DNA of 64,000 nucleotides, taken from assembly GCF_001677475.2 (NCBI RefSeq), contig NZ_CP015229.1. The stretch is one strand, 5' to 3'. Both the position numbers and the translations under genes were made by a program. This document shows, one piece after another, positions 44,779 through 49,509 of the stretch (its first letter is position 1; each line of letters opens with the position of its first letter). Origin of the DNA: Escherichia coli (GTDB lineage: Bacteria; Pseudomonadota; Gammaproteobacteria; Enterobacterales; Enterobacteriaceae). The notes beneath the pieces were generated by a model, which was given only the letters and a program-made list of their open reading frames with translations, did not search any database and was not told the DNA's origin.

Positions 44779-46029
44779 TTAGCGATCAGTTTCGGTGATC
44801 CACAGCTGGCCACCTTCCATCCACGCCAGCCACTGACCATCCGGCGAGAAGACCACGGCGTCCGCAGAAGGTGGATTGGCGTGGTTTTCGGTTAAATACT
44901 CAACCTCGCCGCTTTGCGCATGGGCGCAAGCAATTCGATTATCCAGCACAAAGCCCAACCATTCTCCTGACGGATGCCAGTTAAATGCAGACTGAATATC
45001 CGTTTTGTTATGGGTTAACTGGCGCGGCTCGCCGCCTTGTGCCGAGATAAGCCACAGTTGCACAATGCCGTTATCATCACGCATTAAAAACGCGATTTGC
45101 GTACCCTGCGGATTACAGCGCACCCAGTGGCGCGGGACGTTGACTAACCCCGGATAAGCCCGATGGTGGGTAAAGGTTAAACGTCGCTGCACGACGCCAC
45201 GCGGTGGCGCGGGCAGGGTTGTTTCCGTTCCACTTAACGGCGCATCACCTGCCGCTTTCCAGCCAGCTTCATCTTGCGGTAACTCAACGATAAACAGCTC
45301 CGGCACTTTCTCGCCCTTTGGCGAAAGTGTGTCGCCAATAAACGCCAGCGCGTGATTTCCTACCCATCCTTCTTCATAAGCACGATTGATTTCATCGCTG
45401 CCAGGCTGCGGCGTGGGCGTTGTTTTACTCACCAGCACACACCAGTGGCTACCGCTGTATTCACGCGGATGCTGCTTTTGTACATTGACCGGGCCAAACG
45501 GTGCAGCAACACCGACGTTTCGCAAATCCAGCGCCGGATCGAGTTGATGCATTACATGGTCGTTATAGGTAAAGCTCACCCTTTCACCGTTCGGGTTAAA
45601 GACATGCACATGGCTGCCACCGCGCAGCGCCCCTGGCGTATACGGCGCGGTAATATCCATCGCATCAAGGTTACTCACCTTGCCGCCTTCAACAATCACT
45701 CCGCGCCGATGATGGAAGTCGTAATGCCATGTTTCATCAGGATTTTCCGGGCCGTGAATGAAGACATATTTTTCTGACTTCGGATGAACGGTCACCACGC
45801 CGACGTGTGCGCCCTGTGACGCGCGATAGATAACCTCGACCTCGCCGGTATGGATATTCACACGCTCAATGGTCTCGCCGGTAAACGACGCCCCAGAAGG
45901 ACGCACGTCAAATACCAGCCACTGGCTGTCGGGCGTCCAGGTATTGGTATTGGTGAGCAGGTGATTACGGGGAGCAAAGGTTATCTGTTTCATGGCGCGG
46001 TCCTGATACAAAACGGTTCCCGCCATCAT
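44779..46029 (-). CDS. yidR: Beta-propeller-like protein YidR
   Basis: ~416-aa ORF; synteny between yidQ and cbrA. Confidence 0.7.
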   Translation of the reverse strand: MMAGTVLYQDRAMKQITFAPRNHLLTNTNTWTPDSQWLVFDVRPSGASFTGETIERVNIHTGEVEVIYRASQGAHVGVVTVHPKSEKYVFIHGPENPDETWHYDFHHRRGVIVEGGKVSNLDAMDITAPYTPGALRGGSHVHVFNPNGERVSFTYNDHVMHQLDPALDLRNVGVAAPFGPVNVQKQHPREYSGSHWCVLVSKTTPTPQPGSDEINRAYEEGWVGNHALAFIGDTLSPKGEKVPELFIVELPQDEAGWKAAGDAPLSGTETTLPAPPRGVVQRRLTFTHHRAYPGLVNVPRHWVRCNPQGTQIAFLMRDDNGIVQLWLISAQGGEPRQLTHNKTDIQSAFNWHPSGEWLGFVLDNRIACAHAQSGEVEYLTENHANPPSADAVVFSPDGQWLAWMEGGQLWITETDR

Positions 46030-46093: not shown

Positions 46094-47194
46094 ATGGAAC
46101 ATTTCGACGTGGCGATTATTGGCCTCGGCCCGGCGGGGTCGGCGTTGGCGCGGCAGTTAGCAGGCAAAATGCAGGTGATCGCGCTGGATAAAAAGCACCA
46201 GTACGGTACTGAAGGTTTCAGCAAGCCTTGTGGTGGTCTGCTGGCACCGGACGCGCAGCGTTCTTTTATTCGCGATGGACTGACGCTTCCTGTCGATGTA
46301 ATCGCCAATCCGCAGATTTTCAGCGTCAAAACCGTCGACGTCGCCGCATCGCTCACGCGTAACTACCAGCGGAGCTATATCAATATTAATCGCCATGCTT
46401 TCGACTTGTGGATGAAATCGCTGATCCCCGCCAGCGTTGAGGTTTATCACGACAGCCTGTGTCGAAAAATCTGGCGTGAGGATGATAAATGGCATGTCAT
46501 TTTTCGTGCAGACGGCTGGGAGCAACATATTACTGCCCGCTATCTGGTCGGTGCCGATGGCGCAAACTCGATGGTGCGGCGACATCTCTACCCGGATCAT
46601 CAAATCCGTAAATATGTCGCTATCCAGCAGTGGTTCGCAGAGAAACATCCGGTGCCGTTCTACTCCTGCATCTTTGATAATTCGATAACTAACTGTTATT
46701 CATGGAGTATCAGCAAAGACGGTTATTTTATCTTTGGCGGTGCCTATCCAATGAAAGACGGTCAGACGCGTTTCGCGACGCTGAAAGAGAAAATGAGCGC
46801 CTTTCAGTTCCAGTTTGGTAAGGCGGTGAAAAGCGAAAAATGCACGGTGCTGTTTCCCTCACGCTGGCAGGATTTTGTCTGCGGTAAGGACAACGCCTTT
46901 CTGATTGGCGAAGCGGCGGGATTTATCAGCGCCAGCTCGCTGGAAGGGATTAGCTATGCGCTGGATAGCGCAGAGATTCTGCGTGCGGTGTTCCTGAAAC
47001 AGCCGGAGAAGAGCAACGCCGCTTACTGGCGCGCCACCCGCAAACTGCGTTTAAAACTCTTCGGCAAGATAGTAAAAAGCCGATGCCTGACCGCACCGGC
47101 TTTAAGAAAGTGGATTATGCGCAGTGGTGTGGCGCATATTCCACAGTTGAAAGATTATCCAACGCGCTTCACATCGCCCACCAGCAGGATGTAA
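46094..47194 (+). CDS. cbrA: FAD-dependent oxidoreductase CbrA (geranylgeranyl-reductase-like)
   Basis: Rossmann motif [12 protein letters not shown] near the N-terminus; start uncertain (46073 or 46094). Confidence 0.7.
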
Positions 47195-47268
47195 GAGAGT
47201 GCGCCAATCAACGCGACGACGGAGATATAAACCAGTGCAGGCGCGAAGCCATAGCCTTGCAACAGATA
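47155..47268 (-). pseudogene. Orphan 3'-terminal fragment of a membrane-transporter gene (probably a dgoT remnant), convergent with and overlapping the cbrA 3' end
   Basis: Minus-strand frame encodes a hydrophobic C-terminal peptide (...[39 protein letters not shown]) bounded upstream by an in-frame stop with no start codon. Assignment to dgoT is from K-12 gene order recalled from memory, not from an alignment. Confidence 0.35.
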
Positions 47269-47404
47269 TTAGTCCACAAAAAAACAACTCATAAGAAAAG
47301 GTCTTATATCGGGCAGAAATCTGAAAAGGGAGATCAGGCGCTAAACAGGAGGGAAAGAAGAGTATGCTTTCAACGGCTTAGCGATCTTGTTTAAAGGATT
47401 AATC

Positions 47405-48061
47405 ATGAATTTGAATTTTAAGGGATTTTTTAAGGCTGCCGGTTTATTCCCACTGGCGCTGATGCTTTCGGGCTGTATCTCGTATGCCCTGGTTTCCCAT
47501 ACCGCAAAGGGTACTTCAGGAAAGTATCAATCGCAGTCAGACACCATCACGGGGCTATCGCAGGCAAAGGATAGTAATGGAACAAAAGGCTATGTTTTTG
47601 TAGGGGAATCGCTGGATTACCTTATCACTGATGGTGCCGATGACATCGTTAAGATGCTCAATGATCCAGCACTTAACCGGCACAATATTCAGGTTGCTGA
47701 TGACGCAAGATTTGTTTTAAATGCGGGGAAAAAGAAATTTACCGGCACAATATCGCTTTACTACTACTGGAATAACGAAGAAGAAAAGGCACTGGCAACG
47801 CATTATGATTTTGCCTGTGGTGTTCAACACTGTACCAGGTCACTGGAAAACCTAAAAGGCACAATCCATGAGAAAAATAAAAACATGGATTACTCAAAGG
47901 TGATGGCGTTCTACCATCCATTTAAAGTGCGATTTTATGAATACTATTCACCCAGAGGCATTCCGGATGGTGTTTCCGCAGCATTACTGCCAGTGACTGT
48001 TACGCTGGACATCATTACTGCACCGCTGCAATTTCTGGTTGTATATGCAGTAAACCAATAA
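47405..48061 (+). CDS. yidX: Lipoprotein YidX
   Basis: 218 aa from MNLNFKGFF; lipobox LSGCIS. Confidence 0.7.
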
Positions 48062-48106
48062 TCAGTAAGCGGGCAAACGCGTTTATGCTGTTTGCCCGTC
48101 CACTGA

Positions 48107-48919
48107 TTAATTCAGCACATACTTCTCAATAGCAAACGCCACGCCATCTTCAAGGTTGGATTTGGTGACAAAGTTCGCCACTTCTTTCACCGAAGGAATA
48201 GCGTTATCCATCGCCACACCGACGCCTGCATATTCAATCATTGCGATGTCGTTTTCCTGATCGCCAATCGCCATGATTTCTTCCGGTTTAATACCTAACA
48301 CGTCGGCCAGTGATTTCACACCCGTACCTTTGTTAACGCGTTTATCGAGGATTTCGAGGAAGTACGGCGCACTTTTCAGCACGGTATATTTCTCTTTCAC
48401 TTCCTGCGGAATACGCGCGATCGCCTGGTCGAGGATGGCGGGTTCATCAATCATCATCACTTTCAGGAACTGGGTATTGGGGTCCATTTTCTCCGCTTCG
48501 CAGAATACCAGCGGAATGGTGGCAACGAAGGATTCATGCACCGTGTAGTAGCTGATATCGCGATTTGCTGTATACAGCGTGGTGCGGTCCAGGGCGTGGA
48601 AATGAGAACCGACTTCGCGAGAGAGTTTTTCCAGGAAACGGTAGTCGTCATAGCTGAGAGCGGTTTGCGCCACGGTGCTACCATCAGCGGCCTTCTGTAC
48701 CAGCGCGCCGTTATAAGTAATGCAGTAGTCGCCCGGCTGTTCCATATGCAGCTCTTTCAGGTAATTGTGCACACCTGCATACGGGCGACCCGTCGTTAGC
48801 ACGACATTCACGCCACGGGCGCGAGCTGCGGCAATCGCATTTTTAACAGCGGGTGAAATGGTGTGATCGGGCAGCAGAAGGGTGCCATCCATATCGATAG
48901 CAATGAGTTTGATAGCCAT
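48107..48919 (-). CDS. yidA: HAD-family sugar phosphatase (Cof subfamily)
   Basis: 270 aa; N-terminal DMDGTLL HAD motif. Confidence 0.85.
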   Translation of the reverse strand: MAIKLIAIDMDGTLLLPDHTISPAVKNAIAAARARGVNVVLTTGRPYAGVHNYLKELHMEQPGDYCITYNGALVQKAADGSTVAQTALSYDDYRFLEKLSREVGSHFHALDRTTLYTANRDISYYTVHESFVATIPLVFCEAEKMDPNTQFLKVMMIDEPAILDQAIARIPQEVKEKYTVLKSAPYFLEILDKRVNKGTGVKSLADVLGIKPEEIMAIGDQENDIAMIEYAGVGVAMDNAIPSVKEVANFVTKSNLEDGVAFAIEKYVLN

Positions 48920-49033
48920 GAGTTCCCCAGGTAGATTGGTTCCTGACTCATGCTAACGCGATTCCGCTCAAAAATCAGTACAACACCCGAGGGAAAAGGG
49001 GGATGCAACGCGTGTTGCGTGCTCCCCTTTTGC

Positions 49034-49432
49034 TTAGCGGAAGAGTTTCCCTTTCAGCAGTTCCATACCTGCGGAAAGCAGATCGTTATTGGCTTGTGGT
49101 GACACTTCACCTTGCGGTGAGAGTGCATCAATAATCTTCGGCAATTGCTCTGCCAGTAAGCTGGAAGCCGTACTGGTATCCACGCCCAGTTTTTGCCCGA
49201 GATCGGACACCGCATTTGTGCCGAGCGCTGATTCCAGTTGCTCGCCGCTAACTGGTTGGTTGCCCTGTTGATTACTCAACCAGGTTGAGAGAATGGCACC
49301 TAAACCGCCACTTTGCAGTTTTTCCAGCAGCACCTGGATGCCTCCCTGTTCCTCAACCCAACTTAAAATCGCCTGATATTTTCCCGCATCGCCTTTCAGA
49401 AAGGCACCGACAACTTCATCAAAAAGCCCCAT
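49034..49432 (-). CDS. yidB: DUF937-family protein YidB
   Basis: 132 aa from MGLFDEVVGA; position between yidA and gyrB. Confidence 0.7.
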   Translation of the reverse strand: MGLFDEVVGAFLKGDAGKYQAILSWVEEQGGIQVLLEKLQSGGLGAILSTWLSNQQGNQPVSGEQLESALGTNAVSDLGQKLGVDTSTASSLLAEQLPKIIDALSPQGEVSPQANNDLLSAGMELLKGKLFR

Positions 49433-49509
49433 GATAATCACCTGTAAAGCGTTACGTGTTGACCCAAAAAGTATAGATCTGCGGGATGATAATTGCGGAT
49501 TGCAGAAAT

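Follow-up and report, generated by a model that had tools for sequence, protein, structure and literature searches.

This locus raises the question of what became of the D-galactonate genes that separate cbrA from yidX in most E. coli. Uptake and catabolism of D-galactonate in E. coli are known to proceed through the dgo operon (PMC7674646, PMC12288454). K-12 MG1655 and the majority of E. coli have cbrA-dgoT-dgoD-dgoA-dgoK-dgoR-yidX at this site, which agrees with the five-gene dgoRKADT operon that a sequence-only reading of the DNA had given for K-12. The operon serves D-galactonate catabolism via the DeLey-Doudoroff route and is repressed by DgoR and activated by CRP. In the 64-kb stretch of E. 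coli DNA that was analysed here, referred to as the window, cbrA and yidX are neighbours. It is very probable that the window carries a loss-of-function D-galactonate allele produced by one deletion of ~4.75 kb, and that this event is common to the carriers of the O157:H7 type.

The ORF list and profile matches placed the region 47151-47400 within the gene order ibpA-yidQ-yidR-cbrA-yidX-yidA-yidB-gyrB. The cbrA gene (46094..47194, plus strand), for the colicin M resistance lipid reductase, is intact, with 366 codons and a score of 681.8 bits against the NCBIfam NF008519 cut-off of 303, and its product is exactly the protein ANO91660.1 (CbrA, Escherichia coli). The yidX gene (47405..48061, plus strand) is also intact and encodes a putative lipoprotein of 218 aa with the lipobox LSGC; the product is exactly ANO91661.1 (‘protein YidX’) and the synteny is as in K-12. 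The gene is now co-oriented with cbrA, and 210 bp separate the cbrA stop from the K-12-equivalent yidX ATG at 47405, or 192 bp if the upstream in-frame TTG at 47387 is taken as the start. The gap had been put at about 200 bp, and both values bear this out.

A start-less minus-strand frame, convergent with cbrA and overlapping its 3' end, had also been described and attributed to the tail of the galactonate permease; the attribution proved to be correct. The frame (47155-47268, minus strand) is open, lacks a start codon and a promoter, and consists of 37 codons and a stop. It shares 40 bp (47155-47194) with the 3' end of cbrA and is convergent with that gene, as dgoT is in K-12. By tblastn, K-12 DgoT residues 394-430 aligned to window positions 47268-47158 with 35 of 37 residues identical (94.6%, E = 1.4e-14), i.e., the frame has homology to DgoT at the orthologous locus. 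The likeness is homology and not chance. The frame does not, however, encode a full-length DgoT, for which ~430 aa with 12 TM helices, an initiation codon and a score that passes the cut-off of NCBIfam TIGR00893 (D-galactonate transporter) would be expected: it matched positions 373-399 of the 399 in that model, at 15.3 bits against a cut-off of 395. In functional terms the remnant is neither a dgo operon nor a DgoT transporter, and its sequence is that of a dead pseudogene fragment. The same 114 bp are marked ‘incomplete; missing N-terminus’ by PGAP in A30, O157:H7, O145:H28, O169:H41 and others, and lineage-specific replacements have appeared in them (A-to-V in the window, K-to-T in O157). 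The only other DgoT-like matches in the window by tblastn were distant MFS paralogues at 21-24 kb, at uhpC and uhpT.

The extent of the loss was obtained by BLAST alignment to the K-12 locus extract (L004). The alignment ends at window position 47268 (L004 4552), 114 bp into dgoT counted from the stop, and restarts at 47269 (L004 9303), 141 bp upstream of the dgoR start. Zero bases overlap and zero are left unaligned at this point, both against K-12 and against EC958, so that the breakpoint previously placed near 47268 is located exactly at 47268/47269. The junction corresponds to K-12 MG1655 3,870,551 / 3,875,302, and the 4,750 bp that are missing relative to K-12 (3,870,552-3,875,301) contain dgoT codons 1-393, the genes dgoD, dgoA, dgoK and dgoR, and the 141 bp that precede the dgoR ATG. 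Of dgoT, 8.6% is left and 92% is gone. The distance between conserved anchors is 103 bp in the window versus 4,854 bp in K-12, and the reference cbrA-yidX spacing is ~5 kb, not 200 bp. Homology to DgoD, DgoA, DgoK and DgoR was absent throughout the 64-kb window (tblastn), as was the DNA of the deleted K-12 segment (blastn), which upholds the proposed absence of the operon from this locus. Right of the junction, the spacer between dgoR and yidX survives in its distal 136 bp (47269..47404, aligned to L004 9303-9438), and these presumably hold the yidX promoter.

An IS remnant, an att-like remnant, filler DNA and a direct repeat were sought at the junction and none was found, and microhomology at the deletion ends is at most 1-2 bp when K-12 is used as a proxy for the pre-deletion sequence. 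The event is best described, from the anatomy of the junction, as a single illegitimate (non-homologous) deletion of ~4.75 kb. Such a deletion would have removed the dgo promoter, the DgoR operator, dgoR, dgoK, dgoA, dgoD and the first 393 dgoT codons, and would have joined the last 37 dgoT codons to the half of the dgoR-yidX spacer that lies nearer yidX, leaving nothing of the pathway functional at the locus.

The fate of the regulatory region can be read from the promoter map of Belliveau et al. (2018), in which the DgoR site lies at -140 to -110 and the CRP site (TGTGA) at -160 to -140 from the dgoR ATG, with the RNA polymerase sites downstream of the DgoR site (PMC6003448). As the breakpoint is at -141 from this ATG, the DgoR operator and the RNA polymerase sites were therefore removed. 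The window has no promoter with DgoR operators of the kind found upstream of dgoR, and dgoR itself is also absent. The deletion ends just before the CRP half-site, where the K-12 sequence TGTGA is degenerate (TGTGG at 47274-47278, minus strand). An Rfam scan of 46900-47600 at E <= 1 gave zero matches and thus no sRNA or riboswitch at the junction. A consensus scan of 46900-48200 gave no sigma-70 promoter, nor did it place a plus-strand terminator in the cbrA-yidX gap; transcriptional read-through from cbrA into yidX is possible, albeit unsupported.

The proposal that related genomes be examined for the same deletion could be followed directly, and the identical deletion was found in them. A 96-bp junction probe matched 413 of 5,426 complete E. 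coli genomes (~8%), and all matches were full-length. A 1.1-kb probe spanning the junction was collinear in 412 complete E. coli genomes; elsewhere, it matched in two separate places, with dgoT beneath the left one. Ten of the places matched by the longer probe were on plasmid records. The carriers include O157:H7 (EDL933, EC4115), O145:H28, O169:H41, O157:H16 Santai, the baboon strain A30 and the pig strain F2_81. The exact junction 26-mer, TTGCAACAGATATTAGTCCACAAAAA, was present in 10 loci examined; exact copies were found in Shigella dysenteriae 1617 and also in Escherichia sp. E1V33. The latter genome represents a separate species and aligns collinearly with the window along 9.4 kb, at only 92.3% identity. 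Draft assemblies that are 99.97% identical to the window carry the junction, and the closest complete RefSeq genomes are at most ~98% identical to it.

The K-12 dgoDAK genes gave a complementary count: they were missing from 405 complete E. coli genomes, a number close to that of the carriers, and the operon was at the site in about 89-92% of E. coli. The junction and a dgoDAK match coexist in at least 8 complete genomes (413 + 5,021 > 5,426), and some strains must therefore hold extra or relocated dgo copies. The dgoDAK probe matched 5,380 places in 5,025 records, with up to 5 per genome and 5 on plasmids.

The window allele is a member of the already annotated O157:H7-type dgo deletion allele. 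The breakpoints in the O157:H7 type (FRIK804 EJB16_RS28650, EDL933, EC4115, Sakai-type), O145:H28, O169:H41 and S. dysenteriae 1617 are the same as in the window, and so are the 114-bp remnant, the SNP core around the junction and the ibpA-to-gyrB synteny. The O157 locus differs from the window by ~3% in this region, and has neither the stop-loss (TAT) that the window has in cbrA nor the A-to-V replacement in the remnant. A further difference is a 1-bp insertion near 47383 in the window, which breaks a 325-aa junction-spanning ORF present in O157. In O157:H7 this ORF (L002:3384-4361; window 47083-47394) starts in the cbrA 3' end, crosses the junction and continues in frame with yidX; its counterpart in the window is a 103-aa ORF plus yidX. 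The EDL933 protein AAG58893.1 (325 aa, ‘putative replicase’, YidX cluster) is probably this ORF, which is itself probably an annotation artefact. Beyond what had been read from the window, the comparisons show a common allele of the O157:H7 type, a remnant already annotated in RefSeq as a pseudogene, the loss of promoter and operator, and the occurrence of the junction in other Escherichia species.

The intact K-12 dgoRKADT operon occupies the same chromosomal site between the same flanking genes, with homologous counterparts of the last 37 dgoT codons and of the distal 136-bp spacer; the difference is that its five genes and promoter/operator are absent from the window save for 8.6% of dgoT. 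Other natural dgo lesions in E. coli have structural genes missing or pseudogenised and dgoR intact (PMC12288454). These lesions entail the same loss of D-galactonate potential as the deletion in the window, but in the window dgoR and its operator are deleted as well, so that no orphan regulator is left.

Unless a second dgo cluster lies elsewhere in its genome, outside the 64 kb analysed, the carrier strain is predicted to be unable to take up, catabolise or grow on D-galactonate, because the locus has lost the promoter, the regulator, the kinase, the aldolase and the dehydratase, along with 92% of the transporter. Sabarly et al. (2011) reported that the yield of phylogroup E on D-galactonic acid lactone was 0.40 versus 0.82-1.01 (P = 8e-7; PMC3147056). 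This low yield is consistent with the predicted phenotype. Two of the carrier types, O157:H7 and O145:H28, presumably belong to phylogroup E. An explicit statement that O157:H7 lacks dgo was not found in the open-access literature.

The genes next to the junction vary in other respects. The K-12 cbrA stop, TAG, is TAT in the window (47156-47158), so that the gene runs on for 12 codons (47156-47191) within the dgoT remnant. TAT is likewise found in EC958, O145:H28, 14EC033, AHM8C212RI and E. albertii, and TAG in K-12, O157, A30 and E1V33. Because both forms cut across carriers and non-carriers, the stop polymorphism is independent of the dgo deletion; the long form of cbrA may be ancestral. Two highly divergent allele classes of yidX exist in E. 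coli and both occur among the deletion carriers (pi among carriers = 0.087), with the yidX genes of EC958 (L003:13457-14113), CREC7837 and O145:H28 sharing only 57-80% identity with the K-12/window type along most of their length (window 47440-48061). In S. dysenteriae 1617 (L024:3806-4761, CP006736.1), IS1 InsA-type ORFs lie directly after the annotated yidX ORF and before yidA; the yidX gene of this carrier would have been hit by IS1 as well. A 73-bp piece of the spacer (47309-47381) matches alone, at 95.9%, in the 186-kb contig NZ_JBXRYH010000003.1 of EC20, where there is no annotated feature. Finally, the window shows unusual divergence at and around yidB (48999-49441), with 90-96% identity to A30, O157 and K-12; the dS of yidB against K-12 is 0.22, compared with 0.03-0.12 for the adjacent genes, and the stretch looks like another local recombination patch.

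The origin of the allele was sought in the sequence around the junction. In the alignments, all carriers examined have an identical breakpoint and the same linked SNPs, and a single origin is indicated by this shared breakpoint and its junction-linked substitutions. The allele was not made in the source strain of the window, and derives from the same event as those of O157:H7, O145:H28, O169:H41, S. dysenteriae 1617 and E1V33. Every fixed difference between carriers (E1V33 included) and intact loci falls within a 69-bp core (47242..47310): there are 14, of which 6 are in the 27 bp left of the junction (dgoT) and 8 in the 42 bp right of it (spacer), and there are none in ~1,900 bp of cbrA, distal remnant, spacer and yidX. 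Over dgoT codons 394-399 the core SNPs give TAT CTG nnn CAA GGC TAT. The core differs from K-12 and ws5-3 by 0.28-0.31 (~0.29), and the flanks by ~0.03. Even between intact E. coli (K-12 versus EC958), however, the intergenic half of the core is hypervariable, and the apparent divergence of the core is inflated for this reason.

Synonymous p-distances in the flanking genes give a scale for this value. Those between K-12 and the window or O157 are mostly 0.01-0.14 (0.19 for the window yidB); K-12 lies at 0.17-0.26 from E1V33 and at 0.25-0.56 from E. albertii. The core was also followed with a 47-nt probe for the end of the remnant, the matches to which fell into two classes: 413 genomes at >= 90% identity, all carriers among the matches listed, and 4,826 genomes at 80-90%, beneath intact dgoT in all matches listed. 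No intact dgoT with the core allele was found, the E. coli matches under intact dgoT being all at 80-90% among those listed. A scan of species representatives for the core allele returned E1V33 only, itself a carrier, and a metagenome scan returned nothing. No E1V33-like genome was found in the E. coli collection, in which the best identity was 94.9%, and a protein search with a 44-aa chimeric query gave short fragments only, none with YLLQGYGF.

The relationship to E1V33 is closest at the junction itself. E1V33 is identical to A30 and 14EC033 over 129 bp across the junction, compared with ~5.6% divergence from them over the surrounding 3 kb (P ~6e-4 before correction for eight comparisons). 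At the 356 informative sites that set E1V33 apart from K-12 and from ws5-3, carriers follow K-12 in ~85% of cases; at the junction they follow E1V33, in a single run of 18-22 sites that has one interruption, in the window. In O157:H7 FRIK804 (L002), there are also E1V33-type runs in yidR (45574-46017, 15 sites) and cbrA (46561-46639, 6 sites). Over 45600-45799, O157:H7 is 99.5% identical to E1V33, compared with 88-91% for other E. coli. The O157:H7 patches suggest inter-species mosaicism beside the deletion.

The chances are about even that the allele is old or derives from a divergent Escherichia lineage. Such an origin is suggested because the fixed differences are confined to a 69-bp core at ~29% divergence, because this divergence matches the synonymous p-distances of K-12 to E1V33 and E. 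albertii and exceeds those of K-12 to the window and O157, and because of the identity of E1V33 with A30 and 14EC033 over 129 bp, the E1V33-like run at the junction and the patches in O157. The allele would then have spread between species, in either direction, with the conserved flanks cbrA and yidX-yidA serving for homologous recombination. Exchange with intact-type E. coli would since have overwritten these flanks, sparing only 27 bp to the left of the junction and 42 bp to its right, and this replacement would stop at the core because going further would restore the operon. The fullest form of this proposal, i.e., one old cross-species allele that introgressed into E. coli from a divergent lineage and kept only its 69-bp core, with the E. 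albertii deletion possibly part of the same event, is put forward tentatively, its probability being somewhat short of even.

An alternative, rather unlikely, is that the deletion arose within E. coli, for example in the ancestor of phylogroup E, that the core diverged later by drift or error-prone repair, and that E1V33 was a recipient. The left-core changes could indeed post-date the deletion, because no constraint acts on a pseudogene such as the remnant, because intact strains, too, are hypervariable in the intergenic half of the core, and because the left side by the junction is K-12-like in E. albertii. However, drift should touch all 114 bp of the remnant, whereas the 6 fixed differences there are all in the proximal 27 bp and the distal 87 bp have 0. 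Five of the 7 left-core changes are at synonymous third positions, although this bias is marginal (P ~0.045). A core divergence of 0.29 is also far above the synonymous distance within E. coli, and the additional E1V33-type patches in O157, up to 1.7 kb away, are likewise at odds with an origin within the species.

It is very unlikely that the deletions in the window lineage, O157, E1V33 and E. albertii arose by recurrent, independent events at a hotspot. The E. albertii locus is one reason to consider this. In E. albertii TW07627 (L016:4001-4123, CH991859.1), a protein search found a 40-aa ORF annotated ‘D-galactonate transport’; as in the window, dgo is missing between cbrA and yidX, and a dgoT tail of 34-36 codons is kept. 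The anchor distance is 102 bp, compared with 103 bp for the carriers; the two loci are collinear when aligned without gaps, and both ends of the deletion lie within ~6 bp of those in the window. The junction sequence, however, is different: the central ~33 bp are only ~60% identical to the window, and the left side is K-12-like, not carrier-like. The right end of the deletion also abuts the palindromic DgoR operators. Against recurrence, the carriers among E. coli, Shigella and E1V33 have base-identical breakpoints with 14 common linked substitutions, and there is no direct repeat or microhomology of more than 1-2 bp (with K-12 as proxy) and no IS or att-like remnant. Independent deletions among the E. 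coli and E1V33 carriers are ruled out by the shared haplotype. For E. albertii, it is plausible from the position of the ends that its deletion and that in the window were one very old event, since two independent 4.75-kb deletions with ends so close would be a striking coincidence.

It is scarcely credible that the short cbrA-yidX spacing is ancestral and that dgoRKADT was inserted in K-12-like lineages: a bare presence/absence polymorphism would permit it, but the in-frame, start-less 37-codon piece of dgoT left behind, with its 35/37 identity, contradicts it, as do the presence of the operon at the site in the great majority of E. coli (the 89-92% above) and a right flank that is the distal half of the dgoR upstream region with a relic of the CRP half-site. 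The chance that an assembly error or a collapse in the source record produced the junction is negligible, given the same junction in 413 independently finished genomes and in drafts 99.97% identical to the window.

The loss of dgo from this locus is real, and is an ordinary, already annotated kind of gene loss; a single deletion shared with the O157:H7-type carriers leaves current understanding unchanged and is a confirmation, not a discovery. Only the sharing of the allele across species and its sharply bounded divergent core are mildly new. The scar is a simple and stable PCR or k-mer marker of the O157:H7, O145:H28 and Sd1-type allele, and the 69-bp core illustrates both the erosion of the flanks of an indel by recombination and the movement of a loss allele between Escherichia species. 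D-galactonate is a limiting nutrient in the gut. Knock-outs of dgoR have been repeatedly selected during adaptation of E. coli to the mouse gut (summarised in PMC12288454). For these two reasons, a lineage without the operon has a different nutrient niche. If it is true that the allele was introgressed and has persisted, the loss of D-galactonate use would be tolerated or even favoured in some niches, such as that of ruminant-associated EHEC.
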